DNA from: a virus
Virus record (IMG/VR): IMGVR_UViG_3300045988_171858
Reading direction: 5' to 3' (one strand)
Length of the DNA stretch: 64,000 bases
Shown here: in pieces, positions 37,386-64,000 of the stretch
How the letters are laid out: the number at the start of each line of letters is the position of its first letter
Position numbering within the stretch: the first letter of the stretch is position 1
The notes under the pieces: model-generated
Seen by the model: the letters and a program-made list of their open reading frames with translations, nothing else
Databases searched by the model: none
Told to the model about the DNA's origin: nothing
Translations under genes and position numbers: made by a program

Positions 37386-39073
37386 CGACAATAACCTACA
37401 ACATCTCGATTGTAGGGAAGAGACATTCAGCAGAATTTCAACAAGCCACAGACAGCAGAAACGCTGTCGTGGCTGTTGATACTTCTCCATTGAATGGTTC
37501 CCTAATTGAGATCGAACACAAGAGCCAGGGCGACAGACTACGCTTTGTCAGACTGGAATCAAAATCTATCTCAGGGATTGCTATTCGTTCTAGCAGCCCT
37601 GACATTTTAATTACCGACATTATTCATAATGGCCGCCCGATGTGGTATAAGTACCAGCTTCGAGGAGAGCCTTCTTTATCAACACCGCATTGGACAAAAG
37701 ACGACAACTGGATTTATAGCGATGCCCCATACCTAAATATTGAATATGGGAATATCAAACTAAGAGAAGTTGGAACTCCAGTATTCGTAAAAGAGTCCAA
37801 TCATTTTCTAAATGCCATTAAGGCACTCGACAATAGAACATATTCTGTATCACAAGATTCATCTGGCGAATATATTATCAAATGCAAGAATCAGAATGTT
37901 TCGTTCTCAAGTATTACCGGAGAGATTGCAACAATCTCTGAGTATACTAATCCAAATAGCCCTGTAGTAGGCATCTTTGCAAACGAATACTCAAGCGATA
38001 GAATCGCCTCAGTGGGAGAACAAAAAGCAAAATACCGCTTTCAATCTCCAGAGTTTATAGCATCAGTAATCAAAACAAATAAAACGAAAGTGCCTGTCAA
38101 TTCTGGCGTGGCCAAACTCCCTCATAGATATATCAATTCCGTTAAATCCCACGAACCCAAGAATATTGTATACAATCAAGGATTTATTGTCGTTGATCCA
38201 TCATTGGAGTCAATTGACGTAGAGTACGAATATATCGAACCTGTTAATAACTATGCTTCTATCCCTTTGGGTGTAATTAGAAATGCATCGGTTATTAAGG
38301 TTTATGCAACTCCGTACTCAATAGCTAAGGGTGATGCTGAGGATTTTCTTAATACGGAACTTCTATTCTCTGCCTTCGACAAGGCTGGCGTTTGCATTTA
38401 CTCAACAATGACAGGAATTAATTCTTCTGTTCCGGCCGCAATTCTTGTTACGTCAAATTCCGCATCCGGAGTTGACTACAATGCGGGTAAAGGTAAGAAG
38501 AAATCAAAGGCGCCGCGCTCATTATTTCAATCTGCCCCAGAACTAGAAAAAGATACCGTATTGGAAATAGCAGAAATCAGAATTAAAAAACAAGAACTAG
38601 ATTACGCTATCTCCGGAAGAAGAGCTATGCCAGTACAAGGAAGTATAGGACCAAGAGACCTAAGACTACCCAAACTATCATACTCAAGAATAGTTCTAGC
38701 GGATTACGCTCCACAATCTATTAATTCAAATGTTACAGTAATAGATGCAAATCTATCTGCCGGATACCCAATTCTTATTGGAGAAACAGATTCAGACATA
38801 CTTGTAGAAATAGATAACAGAGAAGAAGAAACAGATGTTGATTTTGTCGACGATGATGATGGCCGTTTCCATAGACGCAATCCTCCTGTATTCCTTGGTC
38901 AAAACTCTAAAATTTGCCTAGTTAATACATACAATACACACAGAGAAATTTTAAAAGAACTTGCTTCAAAAGAGCTTGATGGAAAGACGTATATTAAGGC
39001 TAAAAAGTCGGACTACCCAATTGGTAGAATCACAGCCGAATACGTTCACCTGTCTAAGATTCCGAAAGGCTAG
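37382..39073 (+). CDS. hypothetical tail-fibre-module protein
   Basis: 563-aa ORF with an ATGA overlap. Confidence 0.5.
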   Translation: MTTITYNISIVGKRHSAEFQQATDSRNAVVAVDTSPLNGSLIEIEHKSQGDRLRFVRLESKSISGIAIRSSSPDILITDIIHNGRPMWYKYQLRGEPSLSTPHWTKDDNWIYSDAPYLNIEYGNIKLREVGTPVFVKESNHFLNAIKALDNRTYSVSQDSSGEYIIKCKNQNVSFSSITGEIATISEYTNPNSPVVGIFANEYSSDRIASVGEQKAKYRFQSPEFIASVIKTNKTKVPVNSGVAKLPHRYINSVKSHEPKNIVYNQGFIVVDPSLESIDVEYEYIEPVNNYASIPLGVIRNASVIKVYATPYSIAKGDAEDFLNTELLFSAFDKAGVCIYSTMTGINSSVPAAILVTSNSASGVDYNAGKGKKKSKAPRSLFQSAPELEKDTVLEIAEIRIKKQELDYAISGRRAMPVQGSIGPRDLRLPKLSYSRIVLADYAPQSINSNVTVIDANLSAGYPILIGETDSDILVEIDNREEETDVDFVDDDDGRFHRRNPPVFLGQNSKICLVNTYNTHREILKELASKELDGKTYIKAKKSDYPIGRITAEYVHLSKIPKG

Positions 39074-47955: not shown

Positions 47956-50900
47956 ATGACAACTCCAAATTTAGACTCAGTAACCATCTTAATGGCACAA
48001 AAGATTGCTGCTAACAAAGCAGAGCAAGTAGCAATCAAAGGCGAAATTGAGAGAGTCAAAACATCTCAGAGTGAATCTGATAAGAAAGCAGATAAAGCTT
48101 TAGAGGCAATCAAAACGGCTGAAGGTAAAATTGCCACAGCAGAGGAATCTCTAGAGCAGGTTAAATTAAAAGCAGAAGAAGCTAAACAACAATCGTCGGA
48201 AGCTAAAGAACAAATCGAAGCTGCTAAACAATCTGCAGAAGCAGCCAAACAAGAAGTAGCACAGCACAAAGCCACGGCGGAAGATGCCAAAACAAAAGCC
48301 GAACAAGCTCAAACTAAAGCTCAAGAAGCACTAGATGCAGCTAAAGAGGCTAAATCCTCTATTGTCACTCCTACTGTTGATATTACTGTCGGACAAGAAG
48401 GCGACATCAAAGTCAACAATAAGACCACTGGTGTAAAAGTTGTAACACCAGAAAAAGTAGAAGAGGAAGTAGGAAAAGCGCTTGGTTCAGAAGACTCAAG
48501 CAAAAAGATCTTAAAAAGCCAAGTTGAAGCAACAAAATCCGAAGATCATATTAAAGCCCCTCTAAGACTTTCCTTGGAGTCAGGCATTTACTATATCGAA
48601 GATGCACTGACAGAAGATCTTAGAAACAAAGTTATGTCCAGATACTACGAACCACTGGACAAAAAAGTAGAAGGCAAAAACGATGCCAGAGAAATCGTAA
48701 GGCTGATTCAAGCCTGGTATGACAAAGTTCCTCCTCATTCGTACATCTCTTCTCGCGGCGGCGTATTCCCATTTACCAAAAACAAAGGTTACAAACCAGA
48801 ATACTACGGTGCAGATAACCGTTCTATCAAACGTAACTGGGACAATCCTCAAACACTGGTAGTCCACGGACAGCAACCATGTATTTCCTTCTATCACTCA
48901 GTCGGCAATAAATACGACTTTGCAAAAGCAAAATTCATCGTCGAAGAAATGGGCCAAGATGCATTCCATCTTTGTGGCAATTCGTTAGATAACGAAATCA
49001 TTCACGGCGGCACAATCCTTACACGGGCTTATCAAGAGTTCGGCTACAAAAAAGGCGCTGACCGAGATAAAATGCTGTTTGCTCCTATTGATGGATGGAC
49101 CAAAGAAGCACCTAACATCGGTACGGGGATGGCAGACAAAGGCGTAGCAGAAGCAGGTTTCAACACAACAACACAACGCCATGATATTGCTGCATATATG
49201 AACAACGGCTATGAAGCCCAAGACATTCAGCAGCCAGAAGGTTTTAACAAAACCAAAATTATGGAGCTTCTGAGAAATGGTTCTTCCCTCAGATACATGA
49301 GTGCCGGCGGATACTTCAACGAGCAGGGCATTTCCGAATTCCCTCAAGAAGACGGAACCACTTCTCCGAAATGGGGAACTTGGCGCGGACAACAACGAGG
49401 CAGTCGTGGTTACGGATGGAGACTATTCGGCACTAAAAACACTATCGTCAAAAACTTCGATGTTAGAGGTATGACAGGTGGTGCAATTGTCTGTGGACTC
49501 TATGGCACTCCTATGGGTGAATCTGTAGATGCCAGAGACTCAGCCGCCGCATTCGCCGCTGGTATTGTTGCAGAAAATACAAAAATCACAGGTGGTTACT
49601 TCACACATAACTACATCTGCGGTGTAGAATGTATTCGTGCATCTGGCTTTGAATTGACCGGAATTTACGCTCCAGACTCTGTCGTCGGACATCCGGACGC
49701 AAACCTTGAACATACACGCGGTATTGGTGGTGGTACCTCTCTCGATCCTGGCTATCAACAATGTACATCTCGATATCTGCCAATGGATAATATCTATATC
49801 CATGACAACGTATTCGGATTGGGAATGCGGAAAATTATGGATATCCATACCGGCAATAACGTTAAGATCATCAACAACGTTGGTAAAGCTATGTATTATG
49901 GTGTATCAACAGTTATTGAAGAACTATTCGCCGGCAAGCTAATTAAACCTAGCGATAGAAACAGTAAAGACATTCCAGACCCTCATTCCTTCCCATACCA
50001 AGATAGCAATATCGAAGTAAGAGGAAACACCATCACCTCTGGACTATTTGGCCTTCATCCTATTAATGGAGCCAAAGGTGTAAAAGTCCGTAGAGATGCC
50101 AAAAAATGGTGGCTAAGATGCCATCAAGTCTGGGCGGACAATATTGTTTATGCTCCTAGAGGTATCCTTTGCAACTTTGGCCATAACCACTACCTAGTTG
50201 AGAATAACCAATTCACATTCGCGCTTCCTTATGGCGAATTCTATTCTATGCGTCAAATCTCGGGCATTAACATCACAAACCAAGGCTCAGGATACACCAG
50301 CGAACCAACTGTAACAATTACAGGTGGAGGTGACGAAGCATTCGATGGACAAGCTTCAGCAAAAATCCAAGACGGAAAAGTCGTAGCAATCAGACTAGAC
50401 CGGGCAGGAAGCAGATATGACACTCCTCCCACAGTAACAATAACAGGAGGCGGCGGTTCAGGAGCAACAGCAGTTGCAACTGTAAACTCTCACACATATG
50501 GTATGCTCATTGGTGCGGAAACTCACTATGGAGACATGCTAGGATGTGTTATTGCTAAAAACTGGATTCAAAACTCCCCAGAAGGCAACTATGCCAGACA
50601 GTTGGTGGTAGGTTCACTAAGAGGCTCAACCTTGATGTGCAACTATACAGACACCACTCCGTTCTCTAGCGAAGAAAAATCAAAACTTCCATTTGGTGAC
50701 CCTTATGTATCCAAAACGATGAAATACAGAGACGGCATCGGAAGTCAAGGATTCTACGGCGGCGCATTGAATGGCTGTGAAGTAATCGGAAACTATGAAT
50801 ACGACCAACTAAGACAAACGCTTACACCGTGGATTGGTAAGAATAGAAACGGAACTGTTCATAGCAATTACACTCCGACATACTTGCAATCTGTACTAAA

Positions 50901-52480: not shown

Positions 52481-53194
52481 TTACTGATACAAAGCTTTGT
52501 TGTACGTATCCGCGGTGAAATATTTTAAAGGGTCCAATCGTCCAGTAAGGCCTTTGCCTGGATGTTGGGAAGTTCTCACCTCAAAGTGCAAATGAGAACC
52601 CTCGGCCATATTCCGCATTGTCCTAGCATTTCCAGAAGAGCCGGTAAGGGCAACAACGTCACCAGCCTTAACTCTCTGCCCCTCTTTGACAAGAATGTCT
52701 TTAAGGTGTGCATACGCAACATACAGTCCACGGTCAAGCTTAATAATAAGCATACGTCCATAACCATTGTCATCAGTAGTTTTAACAAAAGACACTACAC
52801 CATCATCGACAGCATAACATCTATAGTTATTAGGCACAGCAAGATCAACACCCTGATGTGCCCGAGTACCTCCATTACGAACCATACCAAAACCAGCAGA
52901 ACGAACAGAAGCTAACTTAGCAGTTCTAAGAACATTGAAACCATGTTTTAGGGGCTGAAATTTAAATCCGCCCGGCAATGGGTCATAATTGCTCTCAGAA
53001 GGCTTTTGAACCACAGGTAATGGTTTTGTATTAGCAGGAGTAGAAACGCTCTCTACGGCCGTTTTTGGAGCCTCTACGGGTACTTCGTCTACTTCGTCAA
53101 AAGAATCTTCTTCTAGTCTGTATGGAACTTTAACATTGGTGGTTTTTTGGTCAGGCTGATTTAATAGCCCTCCAATAAGATTGAAAATATTCAT
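52481..53194 (-). CDS. peptidase M23 family protein (candidate endolysin)
   Basis: HQGVDLAV...YGRMLIIKL...YAHL...GSSGNA...GSHLHFEV, the LytM/M23 HxxxD and HxH motifs. Confidence 0.8.
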   Translation of the reverse strand: MNIFNLIGGLLNQPDQKTTNVKVPYRLEEDSFDEVDEVPVEAPKTAVESVSTPANTKPLPVVQKPSESNYDPLPGGFKFQPLKHGFNVLRTAKLASVRSAGFGMVRNGGTRAHQGVDLAVPNNYRCYAVDDGVVSFVKTTDDNGYGRMLIIKLDRGLYVAYAHLKDILVKEGQRVKAGDVVALTGSSGNARTMRNMAEGSHLHFEVRTSQHPGKGLTGRLDPLKYFTADTYNKALYQ

Positions 53195-53220
53195 AGGCTT
53201 TATCCTTATGTGACCTAGGG

Positions 53221-53946
53221 TTAATCCCAGGTATGAAATTTACTAATGAATTCTGCAGCAAGTGGCAAAGCCGGGTCGTACATACAGTCATCTATTTCAT
53301 ATGATACCACATCTGGTACATCATCGAAGCCTATGGTTTCCCGCCTCCATATAAGAGAGTCGTAAACGGGCCCTCTTCTAAGGAAATCTCTAAATTCGTA
53401 CTCCAGACAATCCGGGAATTGATTGATGAAGAATGTTCCGAATTTAAATTTTGCGTCATGATTATACTTTGGCAAAGACCAGGTCATAAACTTGTTGAGG
53501 GCATTATTCCAAAGTGTCGGCCAGTTATCCTCGAGGATGGACCAATAACGGGCGTTCAATTTGAAATGTATCCTCAACTCAAGTCTAAACAGAATATCAT
53601 CCCTTATCATCTGATAAGAACCTTTCCATTCTTCCCTGAATACTTTGTCAAAGACAAGGTAGGACCTCGTTAATCTTGACATTATCCGGTTCATCTTTAC
53701 GGTATTCTTAAGTCCCATACTCAACTCTTCAGGAGTAAAGTCGGCAAGCTCATTAACCATAGAAGATTTAAAAACCAGCTCATCTCCAATAGGCTTATCT
53801 AGCCCCTTTTCGATTCTGGCTATCCTAGCTTTACGGCGCTTTTGTCTACGTTTCTCAAATCGACTTTGCACCCGGTAATATGCAGACCAGTCAGTAACAT
53901 ACGGAATTTGTCCGTCGTATTGACCTTCAAGGACTACATTACTCAT
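53221..53946 (-). CDS. hypothetical protein
   Basis: 241-aa ORF with a basic RRQKRRKARIARIEKG segment. Confidence 0.55.
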   Translation of the reverse strand: MSNVVLEGQYDGQIPYVTDWSAYYRVQSRFEKRRQKRRKARIARIEKGLDKPIGDELVFKSSMVNELADFTPEELSMGLKNTVKMNRIMSRLTRSYLVFDKVFREEWKGSYQMIRDDILFRLELRIHFKLNARYWSILEDNWPTLWNNALNKFMTWSLPKYNHDAKFKFGTFFINQFPDCLEYEFRDFLRRGPVYDSLIWRRETIGFDDVPDVVSYEIDDCMYDPALPLAAEFISKFHTWD

Positions 53947-54113
53947 AACTTCATAAAGCTAGCTAATGATGCCATAGGGTTCTTGCCATAATTGCGTTGA
54001 AAGGTTTTCTCTTTACGAGTAAGCAAATCCAATGCAAAGTTGACAATTCTTTTAGCTAGAATAAGCATACTTTGGAATGCTAAGATTCCAAGAAACTTAG
54101 AGAGTGACAACAT
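53943..54113 (-). CDS. small hydrophobic protein (weak)
   Basis: ATG at 54113 (the ORF-track start at 54125 is TTG). MLSLSKFLGILAFQSMLILA is TM-like. ATGA overlap with the downstream gene. Confidence 0.3.
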   Translation of the reverse strand: MLSLSKFLGILAFQSMLILAKRIVNFALDLLTRKEKTFQRNYGKNPMASLASFMKL

Positions 54114-54148
54114 AAATAATACCAAGGATTGCTTTTGCTTATATCTTT

Positions 54149-54400
54149 CTATGCTAATTTTGAAAGGCGAATCCTATAACCTTCTAAATCAGTTTGGGCC
54201 GAGAGGACAGGCTCAATTCGGAACTCATAACCGCAGCATCTATCATAACCGGTTATAAAATTCATATCCGCAGCGGGGTTCCAGGCCAGCTTCAAATCCC
54301 ATTCAAGAGGAGTGCCACAAATATGGCAACAACTCAAAAGCGCTTCTTCTATTGTATCGAATATAGCGCCATCTTCGGCATCCGCATAAATAGCATTCAT
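54149..54400 (-). CDS. small Cys-rich hypothetical protein
   Basis: 83 aa with CCHIC and CC clusters. Overlaps the dNMP kinase stop by 4 nt. Confidence 0.45.
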   Translation of the reverse strand: MNAIYADAEDGAIFDTIEEALLSCCHICGTPLEWDLKLAWNPAADMNFITGYDRCCGYEFRIEPVLSAQTDLEGYRIRLSKLA

Positions 54401-54963
54401 GCAGACACCATAGATTCAAAAATTTCTTTAAGAGAAACCAGATAACGAGCTGAAAAGTCATTTTCCAATTCAATGACACCTTCTACTTCATCTTCGATTC
54501 CCCATTCTGATGCGTGTTCAGAAAACTTAGACTTATTATGTTTATCTTTAACAGCGGTAATATTAATTACTTTGCCGCCATTGTTAATAACATAATCACG
54601 CTCATTGTCAAATCTAATATCAGAGATAATGACAATATCGAAATCAGAATAGCGTTCTGAAATTCTTTTATCCAGGACTTTAACCCAGATATCTTCAGAC
54701 ACCATATGTCTGCCCCAGTCAGTACCAAGGCTCTGGAGAATCTCTCTTAAAGAAATTCCAAAACCGTCTATTGGGTCTTCTTTACTACCACGACGATAAA
54801 TATCATCAACATCAAAAATAGGTCTAACCATATCTCTAACTGCATCAGCAAAAGCAACCTTTGCAATCTTCAGGTTAGGATATTCTTGAATAATATGGTC
54901 GGCTGAAAAGTCTTTGCCACTATGGGCCTTTCCAGCGAAGCCCAATAAAAACGGTTTCTTCAT
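54397..54963 (-). CDS. deoxynucleoside monophosphate kinase (T4 gp1-like)
   Basis: P-loop GFAGKAHSGKD. LQSLGTDWGR...WVKVL...SDIRFDNE...SEHASE resembles the T4 gp1 pattern (SGVKRSGKD, LMQALGTD, DTRQDHE, THITE). Confidence 0.7.
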   Translation of the reverse strand: MKKPFLLGFAGKAHSGKDFSADHIIQEYPNLKIAKVAFADAVRDMVRPIFDVDDIYRRGSKEDPIDGFGISLREILQSLGTDWGRHMVSEDIWVKVLDKRISERYSDFDIVIISDIRFDNERDYVINNGGKVINITAVKDKHNKSKFSEHASEWGIEDEVEGVIELENDFSARYLVSLKEIFESMVSA

Positions 54964-54976
54964 TATTATTATTACC

Positions 54977-55396
54977 TTATTTGGATTTAGAAAGAATTTT
55001 TTCTTCCAAATCGAAAATATCCAAAATACCTAGGCGACAATACAGTTCTGCATAAACCTGAAGATTTTGGAAATCTTCTTTAGTTACCTGCTTGCAGAAT
55101 TCAGAAATGGCATCAGTAACTCTGGCATCTGCCTGTTCTAGGCGCCAAATATATGCAAAGCCTATCCTTTCGGCAACATACCGGTTATACTCTCTAATCA
55201 TCTTTCGAGGGTCGTTTAGGATGTCAGGATTTGCATAGTGAATACCATTAGATCTAATAAGGTCTCTTAATACCTCTTCTGCAGTTCGGGCCGGAATAGA
55301 ATACCCCTCAGAAATTACGCGAACAGCATCTAGATGAAATTTAGGATCATCAGAAATGGCGGCCCTTAATTCTTTTAAGAGTGTTTCTTTTGACAT
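54977..55396 (-). CDS. hypothetical protein
   Basis: 139-aa ORF in the operon. Confidence 0.5.
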   Translation of the reverse strand: MSKETLLKELRAAISDDPKFHLDAVRVISEGYSIPARTAEEVLRDLIRSNGIHYANPDILNDPRKMIREYNRYVAERIGFAYIWRLEQADARVTDAISEFCKQVTKEDFQNLQVYAELYCRLGILDIFDLEEKILSKSK

Positions 55397-55404
55397 TTTT
55401 AATC

Positions 55405-55614
55405 CTATTTAATAGGGTGTCCTTCTACGGCTACAATCTTGCAGAATCCCCATGTATCATCTACTTCGATATCTACATTAATAGCGCCGAAAGCAGAACG
55501 TATTGCATCTTGTTGCTCCTCATTAAACATAAGGGCACAATGGTCCAAAGGAGGTATTTCTCCTTCTTCTTCTATTTTGTATCTGCATCTTACTAGCATG
55601 TTAATCCTTAGCAA
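55405..55614 (-). CDS. small hypothetical protein
   Basis: 69-aa ORF, correct strand, tight spacing. Confidence 0.4.
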   Translation of the reverse strand: MLRINMLVRCRYKIEEEGEIPPLDHCALMFNEEQQDAIRSAFGAINVDIEVDDTWGFCKIVAVEGHPIK

Positions 55615-55636
55615 TAATGTAGCCGTATAAAACTAT

Positions 55637-55999
55637 TTAACCGATAAGAGCTTGGAACATTTGAATAAGCTCAGAAGCTTTACGCTTAGATTTACGAGCG
55701 TCAAGGTGTTCCTGATGGGCTTGAAGTACACTCGCTTTAGATCGGCGAACTTCTTTTTTATTTTCTGCTTCATCAAGAATTCCAGCCAATGTAATAGCAC
55801 CGATAAGCTTCAGAAACTCTTCAAACTCTTTTTGCTCATCGTCTTCACATTCAAAGGTTTCGGTTGGAATAACTTCTACAGGCTCGTCATCTTGGACTGA
55901 ACGCAAATAACCCAGTCCGTCAATAGCTTTACTTCTTTCAGCAGCTCGATGTGCTGCTAGGATTTTGGCGATATCGCCAGGGGAAACGTTACGAATCAT
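55637..55999 (-). CDS. hypothetical protein
   Basis: 120-aa ORF with a TAATG overlap with the nrdA stop. Confidence 0.45.
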   Translation of the reverse strand: MIRNVSPGDIAKILAAHRAAERSKAIDGLGYLRSVQDDEPVEVIPTETFECEDDEQKEFEEFLKLIGAITLAGILDEAENKKEVRRSKASVLQAHQEHLDARKSKRKASELIQMFQALIG

Positions 56000-57441
56000 T
56001 ATAGTTTACACGCTACACAATCGTCTTCATCGTCTGTGTGAGAATCATCAGGAACTTCGGTTACATTGCCTTCCATAATGTCGGAAGATTGACCATCATA
56101 ATTGTTATTATAATACATGGTCTTACCTCCCAATAGATAATGGAGATAAATGTCCCAAGATACAACAGATGCGGGCACCTTGTTGTTCGGATAATTCTGT
56201 TTGTTATAATACGTATTAACAGAAATAGCTTGGTCAGTATATCTCTGAATAACAGCATAAGTTTTAATTAGCGCCTCATTAGACGTATGATCCCAAATGC
56301 GGTCATACTTATCTTTAAGCCGCGCCAATTCAGGCACTACGAATTTAGCCTGTCTATTCTTGCCGCCCTTAGAAATAATCAATTCCCGTATTGGCTCAAT
56401 ACCATTGGTAGTACCAGAACCAGAAATCTTAGCACTCGTTTCAGCAGGGAACATAGCAATCATAGAAGCATTTCTAACACCGTACTTAGCAATTCTAGCA
56501 CGGAGACTAGTCCAATCTAATTTCTCTTCATAATTAAACAAAGAGTCATACATAGGAGTAGTCATATCTTTTGGAAGTTTACCTTCCGCCCATCGAGTAT
56601 CAGCGTATGCATCACAAGCACCGCGCTCTTCAGCAAGGCTAACAGAAGCACTAATAACTCCATAAGAGAAATATTGCATCCATTCGTCTAACAGTTCATA
56701 GCAATTGGAATATTTCTTATCATTCTTAGCTAACCAATATGCAAGACCTGTAATACCAATACCAATAGGTCTAAACAATCTATTATGTTCCTCGGCCGCC
56801 GGGAAAGGATGCTCTTGGAAATCTAACAAATTGTCAACAGCACGCATAGTTACATAAGCTACACGAGCCAAATCTTTAGGGTCATCAAAAGCCCCAAAGT
56901 TAATACCACTCAAGTTACACAGAGCAATCAATCCGTCCTGCTTATATGTCTTACTTACAGGGTCATAAGTTCGCGTAAGTCCTTGAGTTGGAAGAACAAT
57001 CTCAGCACACAAATTAGATTGTTTAATCGGATATCTGTCCGTATTGTACATAGAATGACGGTTAATATTATCCGCAAATCCTACATACACTCGACCAGTG
57101 CCGAATCTTTCTTCCACCAATAGGTCCATAAGGTGTCGGGCATTAATAGTACCAACAGCCTCGCCTTTATTCATGGCTCTGGTGTAAGCATCATAAAAAT
57201 GAGAGTCAGAACAGCTAGAATAAAAAGCATCGTAAACCTCTTTGGAGATATGCGGGGAGAACAGGCCAATATCCCTATTTTCCGCCGCGGCCTTAAGCAT
57301 AAAGCCGTTTAAGAATATAGAATGGTCAGAATGTTTCATAGACTCAGAATCCTTCTTCATATTATTTTTATAAAGAAGAGTTTCTTCGATGTCTGGATGT
57401 AGACCCCACCAGTTGAATGTCAATGAGCCCTTCCTGATGCC
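55999..57441 (-). CDS. nrdA: ribonucleotide reductase class I alpha subunit, exon 2
   Basis: GIRKGS...NLCAEIVLPT...PIGIGITGLA catalytic-core motifs. Joining it to exon 1 restores ...SCSQG|GIRKGS (the canonical QGGxRxG). Confidence 0.85.
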   Translation of the reverse strand, partial: GIRKGSLTFNWWGLHPDIEETLLYKNNMKKDSESMKHSDHSIFLNGFMLKAAAENRDIGLFSPHISKEVYDAFYSSCSDSHFYDAYTRAMNKGEAVGTINARHLMDLLVEERFGTGRVYVGFADNINRHSMYNTDRYPIKQSNLCAEIVLPTQGLTRTYDPVSKTYKQDGLIALCNLSGINFGAFDDPKDLARVAYVTMRAVDNLLDFQEHPFPAAEEHNRLFRPIGIGITGLAYWLAKNDKKYSNCYELLDEWMQYFSYGVISASVSLAEERGACDAYADTRWAEGKLPKDMTTPMYDSLFNYEEKLDWTSLRARIAKYGVRNASMIAMFPAETSAKISGSGTTNGIEPIRELIISKGGKNRQAKFVVPELARLKDKYDRIWDHTSNEALIKTYAVIQRYTDQAISVNTYYNKQNYPNNKVPASVVSWDIYLHYLLGGKTMYYNNNYDGQSSDIMEGNVTEVPDDSHTDDEDDCVACKL

Positions 57442-57708
57442 CAAATATGTTCAGTATCGTTCGCAAATCGACACCCGGGATTATACCCAGCTCTATATCA
57501 CTATAGAGTTCAGACTATATCTTCATCCGTATTAAACGGAGCGTAACATTTCGAACGCCATAAGCTTGCGTCCTACGCCTCTCGGCTAGTCGTTGAACCT
57601 TGAATCCATAAAAGGAAACCTTGGCTGCTGATTGTCTCGTATGTTGAGAGTTCCCAGCAATTAATTACGTTTGCTATTGTATATTACTATACAAAGGGGC
57701 AGTCATTT
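57442..57708 (-). ncRNA. ORF-less group I-like self-splicing intron in nrdA
   Basis: The 5' exon ends in U (57709) and the intron ends in G (57442). GGGU can pair with GCCC 8 nt into the intron (P1-like). GNRA-capped hairpins UUGUAUA-GUAA-UAUACAA and CUCUAUA-GUGA-UAUAGAG are present. No ORF. Confidence 0.65.
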
Positions 57709-58596
57709 ACCCTGGCTACAAGAAAGTGCACTATACTCGATAGATTTAGCATGATAAAGAGCTCCACTGTTTACAGCAGCACCATTTCTGATTGATGCAT
57801 TGCGCTCTCTTAATTTGGATGAACCAATACCAAGGCCCGCGCCCAGTGTTGCATATTTACGGGCAGCAGTTGCCGCTTCGCCAATCGAATCGATAGAATC
57901 ATCAGTTTCAATCAGGACACATGAACTAAAACTACGAGTAGGTTTCCTCAAATTTGCAATATGAGGAGTGGGAACATTTACCCGGCCAAGAGACATATTG
58001 TCATAATGCTCTTTAACAAAGCTTAGACGATCTGTATAAGCATCGCCTTTATCGTTGATAAAGTACATCATAGCTGCAACCATATACGAAACTTGTGGAG
58101 TCTCGTAATATTCTTTGGTTTTAGCATTCTTGGCTAAGTATTTAGCTTCCCATTCAACCGCGCCGGAGATAGAATACATCATATCCCTATTGTGGTCTAT
58201 TTGTTTATTCAGCCATTCAATTTCTTCTTCAGAATACTTCTCAAGAATAATCTTGTCATAAACACCAAGCTCTGTATTGTGTTTAATAATTTCATGTAAA
58301 TGTTTAGGCTCAAAATCACCATAAACATATTTGCGCATATTACAAAGCAAGATGCGGCCGGCAACAATAGCATAATCAGGATGCTCTTCATCAATCAAAT
58401 TGTTAGCACTGGTTAACAATGCCCCATTGATTTCTTCGGTAGTGATCCCATCGTAAAACATAATGTTGCTATTGACAGCAATTTCAGAAACAGAAACGTT
58501 GTCTAATCCTGCACATACAAAACCAAGAAAGGAATTGATACGTTCAGGGTTATAAGGGACAACGTCACCGTTACGTTTGGTAACGTTGAATCCCAT
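57709..58596 (-). CDS. nrdA: ribonucleotide reductase class I alpha subunit, exon 1 (ATP-cone N-terminus)
   Basis: MGFNVTKRNGDVVPYNPERI is ATP-cone-like. The FSSCVLIE motif is present. If read without splicing, the frame runs into a TGA 6 nt past the splice site. Confidence 0.85.
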
Positions 58597-58597
58597 A

Positions 58598-58912
58598 TTA
58601 AGCCTCTTCCAAGTTCAGTGCCTTAACAAGCTCTACAACTTTAGCACGGAGGTCTTTAAATTCTACATGCTCATAAGAGCCTGTATCATCACGATCAATG
58701 AAGATTTGAGGAACAGAACGAGGTTCAGGTTTTCCCATTTCTTCGAATCGTTTTTTCAGTTCTTCCATTTCTGTTTTACCGGCATCAACATAAGTCTTTT
58801 CAAAATAGAATCGCTTATGCTTGTCGATATATTTGGTACCCAGGCCCTCCAGAATGGCAGTAGCCTGAACACATTGCGGGCAATTGGATTTGGAATAAAT
58901 CAAAACCTTCAT
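58598..58912 (-). CDS. glutaredoxin/NrdH-like redoxin
   Basis: CPQC active site at residues 11-14 and a VPQIF cis-Pro motif. Located between nrdB and nrdA. Confidence 0.75.
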   Translation of the reverse strand: MKVLIYSKSNCPQCVQATAILEGLGTKYIDKHKRFYFEKTYVDAGKTEMEELKKRFEEMGKPEPRSVPQIFIDRDDTGSYEHVEFKDLRAKVVELVKALNLEEA

Positions 58913-60933
58913 TGATTTTTCTCCGGGTTAAATTTGTTAAACGCAACAAGAATCTCTCCATAATTGGTTTGAGACTTATCAATAATGCCGCGCTCATAAT
59001 CTGTTTTCTCCGCCTCTTGTGGTGCCACTTGTTCTTTTTCCTCACCATTCCAAGCTGTTACCCAAGGAATAGGATTCTTAGTTACAGATTGCAGGCCACA
59101 CAACTCTTCCAGCGGCGGAAGGTTGTATCGTTTCAATCTAGCAGTTGCCAGATAGCGCAGATACTCTTCAAGGATTGCTTGGTTAAAGGCAAAAATTTCA
59201 CCTTCTTTGAACAGGTACTTGCACCAGTCAAGCTCTTCCATAATGGCATCTCGCCATATTCCTTCAATTGCACATTTGACGTCTTCTTCTTCAGACACCA
59301 TAAGGAAGTCGATATCATCGACAGGAAGAATGCTTAGCAGGTTGTTTGTGATTGCGACGTGAATATTTTCGTCCCTATTGATGAGTTTAATAATACGCGC
59401 AAGTCCGGGCAATTTGCCCATTTGTCCAAAGATGAAACTACATGCAAAAGATACTTGGAATCGGATAGACTCCAAAGCATTTGCAGTATGCAATGCAAGC
59501 CACAAAGCCCTTACAGCTTCAATACGCTCACATCTACCTTCATAGTAATCTTGAACCTTTTGAATGGCATCATCATAATATTTGCAGATGCTATCTTTAC
59601 ATTGGACAATCTCTTGGATGTCCATAACAGTATCCAAAGTTTCTTTTGGATTAACAAAAGACTGTTGGATAATATGTGTATATGAGAATGAATGCAGGCA
59701 GTTGCCGGTAATAGACGGGATGCCTTTATAACGAATGACAAACGCGCCGGTTGGCACTGTTAAGCAGTAAACCTTACCTTCATATTGCTCATAAGTCTTT
59801 TCGACAAAATCACCACGAACAGTATCGTCATGGCTAATATACAATACATAGCCGCCATCCTCTTCTTTGTATGTAGAATGAATGCCAGACATAAAGAGCA
59901 ATGCCTGAATATCGTCCACAATTTCTTTACGCTCAATCCAAAGGTTATCTTTACCAGAAGCTTCGGCCATATTTTTAATTAAACCAAGAAGCTGATAACC
60001 TTTAAGATAGCTCATCGAAGAAAGAGGCAGTATATCAGTAAGGCGATTATGATAGACATCTTTAATTGCTCCATCTAATTGGAATTCAATACGGTCATCG
60101 AATACAAAGCTAGGTTTAGCTAAGTTCGACAACAAATCGGCCGCATACTTATTCTTTCCATAAAAATGAAGTTCATCAGGAATACCATCATCTGTCTTAA
60201 GGTGATATCCAAGGACAGTTGCATACACCTTAGCGGCTGTAATCGCATCAAAATCAGCACTGAATTCTTCATCTTCAAAAGCAGTGCCGGTCAATGGCAA
60301 ACCAACCATCTCATGCGGCTCAAACTTATCGGCCTCTTCAAAACCAAAAGAGTCATAGGTCACAAAAGGCATTCTATGGTTCTTAGTTACGAACTGCTCA
60401 AAATTACCATTAGCAGATTTAAAACGAACCAGTTCTTCGTTCTTATCGTAAACATGAATCTTCTCAGGATGAGTCCAATACAACCCTCTATTGGTAGAAC
60501 GATATTGAGCAACCATAGTTTCCATAGTTACATCTTTAATATCAATCCATCCCTTGTCGGTAAGAACTTCAGCTCCTTCAGCCAAACATTCAAACAAAGA
60601 CCAAGTTTGAATCACACATTCAAGACTAGGATCAGCAACCGCCGGATTAAACACAGCAGTAGGAGCACGACCCATAATAGAATCCAATAGGATCTGACGC
60701 TTAATGTTAGAAATAACAATATGCTCCTCCGCCTTTGTAAGCAAAGGAAAGTTAGTTCTATCATTAGTCATATCAATTTCTTCAGGGCGCCAAATCTTTT
60801 CAAGCTGCATTGTAAATAAATCCAAGATAACTTTGTATCTAGGATTATCAAAACGCTGGACCGTAGCGCCCTGGCTGCGGTCCAAGAATAAAGTCTTAGG
60901 AAACAATTCGTTCCCAAATACTGTACCTGTCAT
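58909..60933 (-). CDS. nrdB: ribonucleotide reductase class I beta subunit containing an intein
   Basis: Exteins join as ...IQTWSLFE|CLHSFSYTHII (the R2 iron-ligand motif E..H..SY). The extein total is 378 aa. Confidence 0.85.
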   Translation of the reverse strand: MTGTVFGNELFPKTLFLDRSQGATVQRFDNPRYKVILDLFTMQLEKIWRPEEIDMTNDRTNFPLLTKAEEHIVISNIKRQILLDSIMGRAPTAVFNPAVADPSLECVIQTWSLFECLAEGAEVLTDKGWIDIKDVTMETMVAQYRSTNRGLYWTHPEKIHVYDKNEELVRFKSANGNFEQFVTKNHRMPFVTYDSFGFEEADKFEPHEMVGLPLTGTAFEDEEFSADFDAITAAKVYATVLGYHLKTDDGIPDELHFYGKNKYAADLLSNLAKPSFVFDDRIEFQLDGAIKDVYHNRLTDILPLSSMSYLKGYQLLGLIKNMAEASGKDNLWIERKEIVDDIQALLFMSGIHSTYKEEDGGYVLYISHDDTVRGDFVEKTYEQYEGKVYCLTVPTGAFVIRYKGIPSITGNCLHSFSYTHIIQQSFVNPKETLDTVMDIQEIVQCKDSICKYYDDAIQKVQDYYEGRCERIEAVRALWLALHTANALESIRFQVSFACSFIFGQMGKLPGLARIIKLINRDENIHVAITNNLLSILPVDDIDFLMVSEEEDVKCAIEGIWRDAIMEELDWCKYLFKEGEIFAFNQAILEEYLRYLATARLKRYNLPPLEELCGLQSVTKNPIPWVTAWNGEEKEQVAPQEAEKTDYERGIIDKSQTNYGEILVAFNKFNPEKNQ
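59701..60588 (-). mobile_element. intein (296 aa) within nrdB, probable degenerate LAGLIDADG endonuclease core
   Basis: Starts CLAEGAEVLTDKG (block A). TKNH is block B. Ends VYCLTVPTGAFVI...IPSITGN with C as the +1 residue. VLGYHLKTDDG and IQALLFMSGIHS are LAGLIDADG-like. Confidence 0.8.
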
Positions 60934-60953
60934 ACTAGCTATTCCTTTTTGTA

Positions 60954-60983
60954 ATTATAATAGTAGGAACATCTTAATTGCAA
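60954..60983 (-). promoter_or_regulatory. sigma70-like promoter for nrdB
   Basis: On the minus strand: TTGCAA, an 18-nt spacer, TATAAT, then AAGGA about 9 nt before the ATG at 60933. Confidence 0.35.
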
Positions 60984-60997
60984 CAAAGCAATAAGGT

Positions 60998-61627
60998 CGG
61001 ACGAAAATGTCCGCTCGGATCCGGCAGCATGCCGGATCTGCAGTCACCCCCGGGCACGGGGGCCCAACATCTGCGAAGCACGGTGTTGGAATCTTCTCAG
61101 AAACGAACCTCAGTTCGTAGAAGGTTGGGAATAGCATGTACTCCCACAGCTAGTTTTTCTTTTAGAAAAAATAAAGATATTAATGAGCCTCAGCTCATAT
61201 AAGGCCGGAAGGAAAACTTCCGTCACCGGGCGCGTCCGCGGCCGTGTGATCAGCTCCGCCAGGCAGCGCCGGGCGGGCGCATTATTTTACCAAAATAATG
61301 CAATACAATATTAACGGACCTCAATCCATTTTAAGGCAGAAGACTATAAGGTTATCCCAGCTGTCAATCACAACTGATGCACCGCACATCTTCTACATTT
61401 TAGCAGGCGCTAAAATGCATTTATTTGAATCTACCCAAAGCGTAGATTCAAATGTCTAAGTATAATCACTCTTAAGTGACAAAGACCGGAAGGCAAGCTT
61501 CCGTGCCGGAGCAGAGCCCACGGGATCTGGCCGGCACCTACAGCATCAGGCTGCCCGAATTTCGCAGAAATTTGGATGGTGTTATAACGATCCTTAAATC
61601 GTAGTTGCCGACTCTGCCCTGGTCGGC
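60998..61627. ncRNA. candidate large structured RNA (strand unresolved)
   Basis: At least 18 stem-loops in 630 nt, GC-rich blocks in an AT-rich context, a duplicated two-hairpin module, and no credible ORF. Confidence 0.45.
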
Positions 61628-61721
61628 CCGGGTTATAAAGGAAATTTCATTATGACTTTAGAATTTATGAAAATTAAATCTAAAAGGTTATGGAGCTTAA
61701 TCCATCGCCGCAATTAATCTT

Positions 61722-62210
61722 TTATTTTTCTGTGGCATTGCGATCAACCACACCTTTTTGTTTTTGTTCTCGATAACGTTTTGCCCTGATCTCCCTTGCC
61801 TTCTCTAAGGCCGGATTTTCAGAACTCTTCATTATAGAATTGAAATCGTATTCAACATCAGGATAAGGCACTGAATCTATGATCGCCTTTAGCTCTTCTT
61901 TACTTTTAGGACATTCGGATTGAGGAATCCTAATTAGCTTAATGCCGGACTCTTCTGCTTTTCTGTCCTTCTTTTTGTCCTTGAACTGCTGCCACTTAAA
62001 GCCTGTAATGTCTTTATGAAAATGTTTAATAAATTCAGCATGCTGGGCCCCATCGGTTTCTACGACTATTCCCATTTCTTTGACGAAACAGTCATATCTC
62101 GTCCCATCTGGAAGACAAGCTTCGTATATAACATTACACGTAGGATAAAGCTGGCAAAGATAGCCATAAATAATGCGCTGTTCATTGGAGCCTCTATTAT
62201 CGGCCGCCAT
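61722..62210 (-). CDS. DUF559/Vsr-like PD-(D/E)XK endonuclease (possible free-standing homing endonuclease)
   Basis: YDCFVKEMGIVVETDGAQH...DKKKDRKAEESGIKLIRIP fits the D...hhhE-x-DG..H...D..K...G..hhRh pattern. Confidence 0.5.
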   Translation of the reverse strand: MAADNRGSNEQRIIYGYLCQLYPTCNVIYEACLPDGTRYDCFVKEMGIVVETDGAQHAEFIKHFHKDITGFKWQQFKDKKKDRKAEESGIKLIRIPQSECPKSKEELKAIIDSVPYPDVEYDFNSIMKSSENPALEKAREIRAKRYREQKQKGVVDRNATEK

Positions 62211-62526
62211 AACAAATACCCTGAATAGAGCTCAATTCTCCATGAGCAATGCCATCTAGAACCTTTCCGAGTCCATTATCGTAAAAGAACTTACGATACG
62301 CCTCAAACGCTTTATCATCATCAACGCGCTTAAAGTTATGAGTGGCAAATTTCCAAATGGCACGTTTATCAATCAGTTCATTGATATAGCAGGCGTTATA
62401 AACCTTATCTACAATCAGTGCAACTTCAATACCATCATCTTCGAGGACGGCAACAACGACCTGATGGTCGAAGCTGCCTTCCACATTAAAACCCATTTTC
62501 TCAGGGGCCATATGTACTATCTTCAT
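62197..62526 (-). CDS. hypothetical protein
   Basis: The ORF is open from TTG at 62592. The ATG at 62526 is preceded by AAAGGA and gives less overlap with the upstream gene, so it is preferred. Start is uncertain. Confidence 0.4.
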   Translation of the reverse strand: MKIVHMAPEKMGFNVEGSFDHQVVVAVLEDDGIEVALIVDKVYNACYINELIDKRAIWKFATHNFKRVDDDKAFEAYRKFFYDNGLGKVLDGIAHGELSSIQGICYGGR

Positions 62527-62824
62527 CGGAATCCTTTTCTGGGCAATCTTTCTTACACTTGCATCTGAATAGTATATAAATATGTTCAACAAGAAGCAAA
62601 AATGTAGCCAATGCGAAGACGCCTAAAATGAAGACCACTGGAGTCATAAAAATCAATGGCCACGGAACAAATGCAATTTCCCCGCTAATCTTCATCAGTA
62701 TCATTGGCAAGATACCGGCAGTAAACCCAACACCAATAAGCTTTAGATTATGGAATGACAATTCATCCTTATCTAGTGCAATTTTGGCTTTTCTTTTCTT
62801 ACTCTTTATAGAACGAACTGTCAT
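62501..62824 (-). CDS. small multi-TM membrane protein with charged C-terminus
   Basis: Hydrophobic segments LIGVGFTAGILPMILM, FVPWPLIFMTPVVFILGVFALATFLLLV, then CKCKKDCPEKDSDED. Confidence 0.45.
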   Translation of the reverse strand: MTVRSIKSKKRKAKIALDKDELSFHNLKLIGVGFTAGILPMILMKISGEIAFVPWPLIFMTPVVFILGVFALATFLLLVEHIYILFRCKCKKDCPEKDSDEDSTYGP

Positions 62825-62834
62825 GTCTCAATCC

Positions 62835-63710
62835 TTAGAAATTGTCAGGTATCATCTTTTGTATTCCGCAATAATTATGATTTGGGCAAGCAGAACATTT
62901 TCCCGGATTACCTCCGGAAGTAGAGTCAGAGTTCATAAATCTGATAGCTATTTCTTTTAGCGGCCCTTGAGTAAACTCAGGTCGCTTGGTCACTCCTGTA
63001 TTGATATTAGGTGTCCAACCAAATGGAATCCGAATATCATGCAAAGTATTAACCTTAATCCCTATATCTTCTATATGCTTTACAACTGCCATGTTTCTTG
63101 GATTGTTATATGCATACATCGGGTTGTTTTTATCATCTTGATGAAAAGGACTAATTAAAAAAACCTCAATTCCATCTTCCATCAATAGGATAAGGTCTAT
63201 CGACGTATGAAACGTCTTTCTTGGCTTTCTGCCATAGGACCAAAATATAAGCTCGTCATTAATAGCGCCCTTAGAGTTATACACCCTATCAGAGATTATA
63301 TCCAAAGACTCGGTTAAGAATCTTCTTAGTGCCGCTTTATACGACTCCATATTTTCATCTCCAGCTGGGAGTATCTTCCTAATTTTGCGCTCAAAATAGA
63401 GAATTGGGGCATTGCTAGGCCCATTCAAATCAGACATATAGATCTTAATTGCTTCATATAAAGCCAGGGCGGCCCGCTCTTTCTCACTGAGATTTTCATC
63501 ATCAGAAGAAAGACCTTCAAAAGAAATGATTTGATTTAGACTACGATAAACTGTATCCGGCGCGTCAATCTTATTCCTGCATTGGGTATACAATTTAAAC
63601 ATATTAGCATTAAGCTCCATATAAGGAGCATCAGCCCTAGTCCTTCTATCATGAAGAGGTATCTCAACCTCCTCCTTTAAGACAAGCTCTTCTATCTCAT
63701 TGTTGAACAT
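62835..63710 (-). CDS. possible Cas4/RecB-like nuclease with C-x2-C-x5-C Fe-S motif
   Basis: C-terminal CSACPNHNYC (62868-62897) plus an N-terminal Cys44. IDLILLMEDGIEVF is only partly PD-(D/E)XK-like and has no clear Lys. Confidence 0.35.
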   Translation of the reverse strand: MFNNEIEELVLKEEVEIPLHDRRTRADAPYMELNANMFKLYTQCRNKIDAPDTVYRSLNQIISFEGLSSDDENLSEKERAALALYEAIKIYMSDLNGPSNAPILYFERKIRKILPAGDENMESYKAALRRFLTESLDIISDRVYNSKGAINDELIFWSYGRKPRKTFHTSIDLILLMEDGIEVFLISPFHQDDKNNPMYAYNNPRNMAVVKHIEDIGIKVNTLHDIRIPFGWTPNINTGVTKRPEFTQGPLKEIAIRFMNSDSTSGGNPGKCSACPNHNYCGIQKMIPDNF

Positions 63711-63984
63711 TTTGACCGATACCCTGTTTAGCAGCAGTATTTTGCTGAATCAGTGCATCAAACTCACGAGGAGTCATCTCTTCAAAGTAAGCCTTCTCAG
63801 GCCAGAATCTAGTTGGAATATCACCCTTAAAGGATGCAACTTTATTCTTACCAATGCTCCAGATAACAAGAGGTTTTCTACGACGAGATTCATCTTCGCT
63901 ATAATCAATATGATAAGCGACTGCATTCTCGCGCAGACCATGCAACTCATTCCAACCGTGCATAATCAGATTACTGTCATACAC
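63697..63984 (-). CDS. hypothetical protein
   Basis: 95-aa ORF. The listed start is GTG, with an in-frame ATG at 63963. It overlaps the downstream gene by 14 nt and lies near the window edge. Confidence 0.4.
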   Translation of the reverse strand: MYDSNLIMHGWNELHGLRENAVAYHIDYSEDESRRRKPLVIWSIGKNKVASFKGDIPTRFWPEKAYFEEMTPREFDALIQQNTAAKQGIGQNVQQ

Positions 63985-64000
63985 AAGGCTGTTAGATTCG

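Follow-up and report, generated by a model that had tools for sequence, protein, structure and literature searches.

A modular hairpin array in the non-coding spacer upstream of the phage genes nrdB and nrdA

Promoter-early stem-loops (PeSLs) are composite terminator/promoter cassettes of T4-type phages, in which conserved stem-loops are followed by promoters and whose positions coincide with the breakpoints of indels that distinguish close relatives (Arbiol et al. 2010, PMC2839356; Comeau et al. 2014, PMC4122927). Here, we describe a hairpin-rich element in a stretch of 64,000 nucleotides of the virus record IMGVR_UViG_3300045988_171858 from IMG/VR, which we refer to as the window and which is part of a large myovirus. 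The element fills the non-coding spacer ahead of the ribonucleotide reductase gene nrdB. It is built as a tandem array of about six hairpin modules, whose connecting motif is found at this locus and in one orientation only and whose modules differ greatly between close relatives. We tentatively propose that the array acts at the RNA level as a PeSL-like punctuation of nrdB-nrdA expression, and weigh this proposal against several alternatives below.

A locus-specific tandem array of hairpin modules

The spacer comprises 788 nt (60934-61721) between the start of nrdB (60933) and the stop of the upstream gene (61722-62210), both on the minus strand. Within these bounds we found no conserved open reading frame (ORF) and none with a plausible start, and no ORF preceded by a Shine-Dalgarno (SD) sequence is common to all groups of related spacers on either strand, a tiny non-conserved plus strand ORF excepted. 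An earlier note, made from the letters of this DNA, had reported a gap of this length and described it as the only long non-coding stretch of the window, with which the ORF maps are consistent. For each of the 18 stem-loops it had listed, complementary arms are indeed present, mostly perfect over 5-12 bp.

In its predicted folding the block is the strongest outlier of the window. When the 64 kb were scanned in sliding windows of 200 nt, six consecutive windows over 60901-61600 took ranks including the 1st, 4th, 5th, 12th and 13th; their minimum free energies (MFE) lie 18-31 kcal/mol under those of shuffled sequences, compared to a mean of -4 +/- 5.6 over the whole 64 kb. The MFE of the entire block amounts to -281 kcal/mol on the plus strand (z = -13.2) and -283 kcal/mol on the minus strand (z = -6.1), each judged against 20 dinucleotide shuffles. 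The windows 37401-37600, 30001-30300 and 48001-48200, which lie in or border plus strand genes, also fold 20-25 kcal/mol better than shuffles. The GC content is 0.46-0.50 in the block and about 0.39 in the flanks, AT-rich stretches are present, and the hairpin loops measure 3-9 nt. A GC-skew inflection, tandem or iteron-type repeats and a CRISPR-type array of regular 25-40-nt direct repeats with unique spacers were not observed in the block. Its sole direct repeat is a palindrome-bearing 23-nt junction hairpin, present in three direct copies at a spacing of 208 and 281 nt.

This hairpin belongs to a motif of about 50 nt, which we term the junction. On the minus strand it consists of a YGG...CCR hairpin (most commonly CGGAAG-N5-CUUCCG), an N-YCUU linker plus 2-5 nt, a second, small hairpin of 5-6 bp with a YNAG loop, and an A/U box (UAAUAU or UAUACU), beyond which a stable hairpin usually begins after 5-7 nt. 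Exact pattern scans detected three copies of the CGG hairpin with YCTT and four copies of the small hairpin with TATA, all on the minus strand and with practically none elsewhere in the 64 kb. A covariance model (R1) was built from 17 junction copies aligned with MAFFT (alignment A4) and searched against both strands of the window with filters off. It returned five matches with E<0.03, all of them in the spacer and on the minus strand (61503-61453, 61345-61302, 61222-61171, 61146-61091 and 61013-60948), three of which are outside the training set, and no credible match outside the spacer. Over 141 kb, comprising the window and seven related loci, 29 out of 29 R1 matches fall within spacers and in gene orientation, with four to five copies per spacer placed 70-165 nt apart. 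Exact CGGAAG...YCTT likewise occurs at the spacer locus only in the relatives of about 180-188 kb. Since the repeated junction is restricted to this locus, the block represents a locus-specific tandem array of about six modules, composed of a first unit of about 220 nt and five junction-led units, with modules of 75-240 nt. The module bodies that follow the junctions contain one to three hairpins each, of which the pairing is kept and the sequence is not. Whatever its function may be, the junction is a candidate for a new RNA motif without a counterpart in Rfam, and its covariation-backed matches at a single locus and strand make it a searchable signature.

We compared the spacer in about 20 related loci, which were found by protein-anchored and pattern searches and belong to uncultured myovirus contigs of about 170-190 kb and to metagenomes. 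Among these relatives, the distance from the endonuclease-like upstream gene to nrdB ranges from 577 to 896 nt, and the spacers fall into about six sequence groups. While the flanking genes share about 80% DNA and 88-90% protein identity between groups (range 80-90%), only 25-49% of the spacer of the window can be aligned to any other group, and this in scattered, shuffled pieces. The spacer is thus a mosaic despite its well-conserved flanks, which is not how one compact RNA of fixed fold would be expected to behave. Two of the relatives (L002 and L003) differ by a 284-nt cassette that carries CGGAAG hairpins at both bounds. More distant relatives (L038-L041), in which the neighboring gene is 57% identical, possess a single-unit spacer of about 205 nt. 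In Acinetobacter phage ME3 (NC_041884, L076), the homologous nuclease gene runs straight into the nrdA coding sequence and no structured spacer is present. The 315-nt gap annotated there (4469-4783) shows no structure (z = -0.58), and its translation corresponds to the ATP-cone with which nrdA begins (VIKRNGRRVKF...); judging from this sequence, the nrdA start in the deposited record probably lies too far downstream. As this gap is unstructured nrdA coding sequence, ME3 was dismissed as a cultured model for the array. All relatives, ME3 among them, have the endonuclease-like gene as a fixed component, and the array is clade-specific; since there is no unit in ME3, one in L038-L041 and five or six here, the array grew within this clade. 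The comparison demonstrates that modules are rapidly gained, lost and replaced among closely related phages. The earlier note was correct in describing a hairpin-dense, non-coding structured RNA, but erred about its kind, as the element is a modular, clade-specific and rapidly remodeled array, for which the evidence leans to the minus strand.

The array is made up of the following parts, where A2 denotes an alignment of 13 sequences and G1 to G6 denote sequence groups.

60934-61721, minus strand: whole non-coding spacer without a conserved ORF, a tandem array of about six hairpin modules; top folding cluster, mosaic in 20 loci.
61504-61721, minus strand: unit 1, from the stop of the upstream gene to the first junction, about 220-240 nt across the focal clade (A2).
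61690-61705, minus strand: hairpin hp1 with the invariant loop UUAAGC; three of its four pairs are changed on both sides in G1.
61605-61654, minus strand: most conserved element of the spacer, CAUAAU..UUUCCUUU..ACCCGGGCCGACCAGGGCAGAGUCGGCAA, including hairpin 61607-61627; invariant in A2.
61652-61717, plus strand: tiny ORF of 21 codons, MTLEFMKIKSKRLWSLIHRRN followed by a stop, with a strong SD, opposite to all neighboring genes.
61582-61602, minus strand: small hairpin of unit 1 with the loop UAAG, followed by UUAUAA; partial R1 match at 61587-61603, stems that vary by group yet pair on inspection.
61453-61503, minus strand: junction 2, composed of a CGGAAG-CUUGC-CUUCCG hairpin (61487-61503), a G-UCUU linker, a small hairpin (61466-61479) and UUAUACU; R1 score 62.3 bits, also found by motif scans.
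61423-61453, minus strand: hairpin hpL of 12 bp with the conserved loop GCUUUGG, missing only from G3 among the groups and found even in the distant L038-L041.
61302-61396, minus strand: junction 3, composed of a long hairpin (61336-61396), a C-CUUAAAAU linker, the small hairpin GGAUUGAGGUCC (61308-61329) and UUAAUAU; found by R1.
61224-61301, minus strand: body of cassette 'a', an AT-rich 10-bp hairpin (61279-61301) followed by two GC-rich hairpins.
61171-61222, minus strand: junction 4, composed of CGGAAG-UUUUC-CUUCCG (61206-61222), a G-CCUU linker, AUGAGC-UGAG-GCUCAU (61183-61198) and UAAUAU; R1 score 64.9 bits.
61091-61146, minus strand: junction 5, composed of UGGGA...UCCCA (61126-61146), an A-CCUU linker and ACGAAC-UGAG-GUUCGU (61103-61118); R1 score 17.7 bits, E = 0.011, outside the training set.
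61016-61089, minus strand: three GC-rich hairpins (61064-61089, 61047-61062 and 61016-61040), 78-83% identical to G1.
60948-61013, minus strand: junction 6, fused with the nrdB promoter region and composed of CGGAC-AUUUUC-GUCCG (60998-61013), an A-CCUU linker and a small hairpin (60977-60992); R1 score 18.6 bits.
60941-60970, minus strand: hairpin GUUCCU...AGGAAU, predicted by local folds of all spacers to be able to mask the nrdB SD, with the -10 box in its loop.

In groups G1-G5 the first CGGAAG hairpin begins at spacer position 219-238, and the length of unit 1 differs in the more divergent group G6 (L018/L022/L024). According to a pattern search, the element at 61605-61654 is the sole piece shared with G6; in the L038 clade structured units are present but this element is lacking. 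Its hairpin 61607-61627 has the form GCCGAC-N9-GUCGGC and is invariant; the GGG in its loop could pair with the flanking CCC (CCCGG, 61628-61632) to give an H-type pseudoknot. In plus strand direction, this hairpin precedes the strong SD and the ATG of the tiny ORF. Group G6 possesses a second copy of the SD-like element about 250 nt further on. The R1 match of junction 3 (61302-61345; 23.1 bits, E = 5e-4) is outside the training set, and homologous copies exist in L002, L003 and L004. Inspection of cassette 'a' revealed that its AT-rich hairpin is kept in G2-G5, while its GC-rich hairpins are unrelated in sequence yet still form hairpins; the three GC-rich hairpins at 61016-61089 display compensatory changes relative to G1. 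Junction 6 contains a sigma70-like -35 box (TTGCAA, 60978-60983) and -10 box (TATAAT, 60954-60959), as identified by a promoter scan, and the nrdB SD (60941-60946) can pair with GUUCCU at 60965-60970.

Conservation of pairing was assessed in the homologous spacers, as the earlier note had proposed, and compensatory changes were found in several stems. In alignment A4, 96.5% of the alignment cells are paired, compared to 83.6 +/- 1.6 in shuffles, of which 0/500 came as high. Five of the six pairs of the small junction hairpin are changed on both sides, and partners slid out of register pair in only 20-57%. The model-fitted alignment A5, which favors structure by construction, shows double changes in 11/12 pairs. 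The stem of hpL is 9-12 bp long across groups and unrelated in sequence; in an alignment anchored on its loop with an N placeholder, eight of nine pairs are double-changed and 95.8% of cells are paired, a value that 0/500 shuffles reach. Moreover, 23 double compensatory changes occur inside groups that are 93-97% identical. These patterns support selection on the hairpins and a role as RNA for at least some of the structure. With respect to the strand, the small junction hairpin counts 17 G·U versus 0 A·C cells in gene orientation, although perhaps only 5-6 independent events underlie this count. In combination with the shared orientation of all motif copies and the direction of the neighboring genes, this favors RNA on the minus strand. 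Since the G·U bias is seen in hairpins past the first junction, transcription would run past the first junction hairpin, and the modules would therefore be made at least partly as one transcript.

Two further interpretations of the junction were rejected. Pairing of the CCUU linker with the YNAGG loop as a pseudoknot is sterically ruled out for copies with a 4-nt loop. A boxA/boxB (nut-like) arrangement was discarded because N-YCUUUR resembles boxA only loosely and five tandem nut sites are implausible.

Database searches and the surrounding nrd locus

At gathering score, the sole match of Rfam 15 in the window is a group I intron in nrdA. With the threshold relaxed to E<=10, a search of both strands of 60800-61900 yielded merely two chance-level matches (a snoRNA at 17.9 bits and an rpsB small RNA at 13.2 bits), and the spacers of four relatives (L001-L004) gave nothing. 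Hence, an assignment to GOLLD, ROOL, HEARO, OLE, raiA, introns, ribozymes or riboswitches is unsupported. ARAGORN found no tRNA or tmRNA in the window or in eight related loci. BLAST against the 50,697 deposited phages of INPHARED returned no nucleotide match for the block or the surrounding 6 kb, nor did tblastn with a 109-amino-acid neighbor return anything from this collection. The exact pattern CCGGAAGGNAANCTTCCGT has two matches in IMG/VR, both unrelated, and misses the relatives because they differ by 1-3 bases. A pattern for the conserved core, the element at 61605-61654, was absent from 185,579 bacterial genomes; there is thus no host or prophage counterpart. Boxes for NrdR (acaCwAtATaTwGtgt) were not found in the spacer with up to 3 mismatches allowed.

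The genes and the intron that surround the array are the following.

61722-62210, minus strand: homing-endonuclease-like gene of 162 amino acids, upstream neighbor and outside the array; matches phrog_559 and phrog_9084 and, weakly, DUF559.
58909-60933, minus strand: nrdB, with a complete N-terminus, its own ribosome binding site (RBS) and a promoter-like site.
57491-57718, minus strand: group I intron (Rfam RF00028, 80 bits) splitting nrdA into the ORFs 57703-58596 and 55999-57444.

According to the ORF map, all genes from 52481 to 64000 lie on the minus strand. They include a block of nucleotide-metabolism genes; among the structural genes that precede it on the plus strand are those for a sheath and a head-like protein as well as very large ORFs. 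The sheath shares 39% identity with its counterpart in Acinetobacter phage ME3. In the phage of the window, the RBSs are strong SD sequences. A primase-helicase gene is located about 3 kb upstream of the spacer in the relatives. The promoter scan identified a sigma70-like site (TTGCAA-N18-TATAAT, 60983-60954, minus strand) just upstream of nrdB, where the earlier note had placed one, and no promoter-like site on the plus strand. With a promoter-like site of its own for nrdB, the view that the block is not just the nrdB leader is supported.

The nrd locus is crowded with mobile elements. The homing-endonuclease-like protein is 88-90% identical in the relatives and 40% identical to a 'homing nuclease' of phage ME3. 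Besides the intron in nrdA, nrdB carries an intein-sized insert at about amino acids 117-412, which starts with CLAEGAEVL and ends with SITGN|C; the profile of the ribonucleotide reductase (RNR) small chain matches two separated stretches, and no intein match was returned from Pfam for the insert. Group I introns are also found in nrdB of relatives (L001, 10371-10583; L002, 10917-11108, with an ORF at 10504-11025), one of which carries an ORF of 173 amino acids, and in L039 an ORF of 297 amino acids (4466-5359) is inserted within the endonuclease-like gene itself. In the window, a major-head-like ORF (9286-10674, plus strand) includes an endonuclease-like stretch (phrog_452, amino acids 306-394), which may represent another inserted mobile element. 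The ORF 62835-63710 (minus strand, 291 amino acids) has no family match and ends in a C-terminal C-x2-C-x5-C motif; it is kept in distant relatives at 28-31% identity and by eye alone has a Cas4/RecB-nuclease-like look. We also considered whether the spacer might be a group I intron hosting the endonuclease-like gene. The intron_gpI model has no match in the spacer, though the same search scores the nrdA intron at 80 bits, and nrdB retains its N-terminus, RBS and promoter-like site; this possibility was therefore rejected.

Possible functions of the array

From the anatomy of the locus we infer, with confidence a little short of even, a co-transcribed beads-on-a-string RNA array on the minus strand that would punctuate and tune the expression of nrdB-nrdA in a PeSL-like manner. 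The array would be transcribed along with its flanking genes, and transcripts from the upstream replication-gene operon would read through it. The junction hairpins could function as leaky terminators and/or protective ends, and the A/U-rich box as a cleavage site or a -10-like site of re-initiation, whereby the array would insulate and tune the nrdB-nrdA operon. The putative sigma70-like promoter of nrdB itself would sit in the last junction, and the nrdB SD would be masked by the upstream UUCCU in read-through transcripts only, because the -10 box lies in the loop of the masking hairpin. Module turnover would probably proceed by recombination between junction copies and, as inferred from T4 mobE biology (PMC2790892), probably also by gene conversion beside the endonuclease-like gene.

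Several observations weigh against this proposal. The junction hairpins lack a proper U-tract: a terminator scan flags 61503-61487 and 61198-61183 (minus strand), but their tails are just N-YCUUU..., unlike the clear terminators of this phage at 8508-8528 and 52446-52471. A consistent -35 partner of the A/U box is lacking; by inspection of A4 and A5, TTG-like hexamers are found at distances of 12-15 nt and are not conserved, and a sigma70 -35 box within the junction was discarded on these grounds. In one close relative the box reads TAATAC. The most conserved element of the spacer, 61605-61654, is left unexplained and is best read as an RBS on the opposite strand. Unlike PeSLs, the motif occurs at a single locus and has no ORFs beside it. 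Finally, the 17:0 count has few independent events behind it, the balance of G·U versus A·C over all hairpins of seven representative spacers in gene orientation is 37:27, the MFE by orientation is ambiguous, and most stems are near-perfect palindromes that are able to form on either strand or in DNA.

Instead of acting on the neighboring genes, the array might act in trans, which we consider unlikely but the most interesting of the alternatives. A long minus strand transcript might be cut at the A/U boxes into hairpin RNAs of about 75-160 nt that serve as trans-acting small RNAs. Otherwise it might stay a multi-site sponge or decoy, whose 5-6 small hairpins with SD-like YNAG(G) loops and anti-SD-like CCUU linkers would titrate an RNA-binding protein or ribosomal component of host or phage. 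Such roles would be consistent with a repeated, locus- and strand-specific motif in which loops and linkers are conserved while stems covary, with the further conserved loops GCUUUGG and UUAAGC, and with RNA-level selection on hairpins beyond the first junction hairpin. The array is also dispensable for the nrd genes, as relatives have one unit or none, which fits an accessory RNA gene. On the other hand, we did not identify a seed region that is conserved and single-stranded; AGGA is confined to about one third of the small hairpins (inspection of A4/A5), which makes a CsrA-type sponge unlikely; and the wholesale replacement of module bodies between close relatives would be odd for RNAs with specific targets. 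Similarly doubtful is the wider claim of a new class of phage tandem structured-RNA array, cut into diversifying hairpin RNAs or left uncut as a decoy and targeting in trans an RNA-binding factor of host or phage. Such an array would serve for example as an anti-defense decoy or translation-factor sponge, and its variable modules would be an evolving cargo that resembles guide or decoy arrays in logic, not in ancestry. A true guide array, either of the TIGR type with a Nop-domain Tas protein or of the CRISPR or bridge-RNA type, is barely credible. Phage-borne tandem stem-loop arrays of the TIGR type have been described (PMC12045711), but a scan of eight ORFs over 55999-63984 with Pfam and PHROG gave nuclease-like proteins, RNR or no match and no Nop domain. 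A 36-nt dual-repeat period is lacking, the loops of 3-9 nt are too small for two 8-12-nt spacers with box C/D, and no recombinase or Cas gene is nearby.

The remaining alternatives differ in the molecule or the strand that would be active. That the palindromes work as DNA, by extruding or by binding proteins at an origin, a primase/helicase loading site or a recombination hotspot, is in our view quite unlikely. Near-perfect palindromes with few G·U pairs and no significant strand balance overall, three direct copies of the palindrome-bearing 23-nt repeat, AT-rich stretches, a site in the replication and nucleotide-metabolism block with the primase-helicase gene nearby, and a mosaic spacer adjoining a homing-endonuclease-like gene would all suit such an element. 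This is opposed by the 17:0 count of the small hairpin and by the junction hairpin, whose stem of 5-8 bp varies in sequence with its pairing kept, which fits folded single strands better than a fixed duplex operator; iteron-type repeats and a GC-skew inflection are missing, and all motifs share one orientation, co-directional with transcription. Very unlikely is a function of the plus strand, that is, a structured leader coming from the nrdB side and ending at the conserved RBS (61636-61654), which would drive the tiny ORF. This ORF might encode a leader peptide or be a minigene, or else the element might be a module of the type I toxin kind or regulate the 3' end of the upstream gene as an antisense RNA. 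The SD (AAAGGAAA; TAAGGAGG in G6) and ATG are kept in all seven sequence groups with a variable spacer of 5-8 nt between them, as in a genuine RBS; hairpin 61607-61627 next to it does not vary, and the plus strand has the lower z-score. The earlier note had listed four stem extensions by G-U pairs that are valid on the plus strand only; these exist, but given the 37:27 balance they do not settle the strand. The encoded peptide varies from 3 to 48 amino acids, is not conserved and is cut short by premature stops in G2, G3 and G6, so that judging from its sequence the ORF probably does not specify a functional peptide. Furthermore, the promoter scan found no plus strand site, every gene of 52481-64000 is on the minus strand, that strand is also favored by the junction motifs with their G·U pairs, and the distant L038 clade has structured units without the conserved element. 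A single large ornate RNA with a global fold, a giant non-coding RNA akin to GOLLD or ROOL as suggested by the earlier note, is highly improbable. Size, hairpin density, phage context and strong folding z-scores would speak for it. The Rfam search of both strands that the note had recommended returned neither of these families at gathering score or E<=10, in the block or its relatives; module order and content differ between close relatives along with the length, and the structure consists purely of local hairpins in repeated units of about 75-160 nt. The sole long-range helix of the MFE structure, TTAATTGC/GCAATTAA, which would join the two ends of the block, is not found in group G4. A GOLLD/ROOL-like RNA can thus not be recognized by its size and hairpin density alone.

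If RNA punctuation ahead of nrdB-nrdA is correct, this clade has built a dedicated punctuation array by repeated addition of hairpin cassettes ahead of its ribonucleotide-reductase operon. The relatives would then offer a natural series, from none (ME3) through one unit (distant relatives) to five or six (here), for the birth, duplication and shuffling of regulatory RNA modules beside a homing-endonuclease-like gene. Should the array give rise to trans-acting RNAs or a decoy instead, it would constitute a new type of phage non-coding RNA locus.

Comparison with known systems

With GOLLD (RF01998) and ROOL (RF03087), the array has in common that it is non-coding, hairpin-rich, several hundred nucleotides long and located in a phage genome. 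It differs in that it matches no covariance model, lacks a conserved global architecture, and is modular and rapidly shuffled. TIGR arrays (Faure et al. 2025, PMC12045711) likewise are tandem variable palindromic stem-loops with small conserved motifs in phages; here, however, no Nop-domain protein is adjacent, the loops are small and the units are irregular in length (75-160 nt). The sponges CsrB and RsmZ also present many short hairpins with a similar purine-rich loop motif on one RNA. The loop motif of our array is YNAG(G) with no consistent GGA, AGGA being present in a minority of copies (inspection of A4/A5), and the array is situated inside an operon spacer instead of forming an independent small RNA gene with a clear terminator.

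The genomic setting recalls T4 mobE, which lies between nrdA and nrdB (PMC2790892, PMC2988022), as a homing-endonuclease-like gene is placed beside intron- and intein-bearing nrd genes and the flanks of such loci are expected to be recombination-prone. Descriptions of mobE-type loci do not mention a hairpin array of several units (PMC2790892, PMC2988022). PeSLs, in turn, occur beside small ORFs in many hyperplastic regions, whereas the motif described here is restricted to one spacer of a genome of about 185 kb and has only hairpins at its sides. PeSL promoters are near-consensus -35/N17/-10 sequences, whereas here 29 copies carry a stem-loop and an A/T box (TAATAT, TATACT) without a consistent -35, and a second, covarying small hairpin occupies the place of the -35 and spacer. 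What both share is a short conserved stem-loop followed by an A/T-rich box, which here is possibly promoter-like, repeated in gene orientation, and copies at the breakpoints of indels or replacements, as in the L002/L003 cassette and the mosaic spacer, which plausibly reflect recombination between copies.

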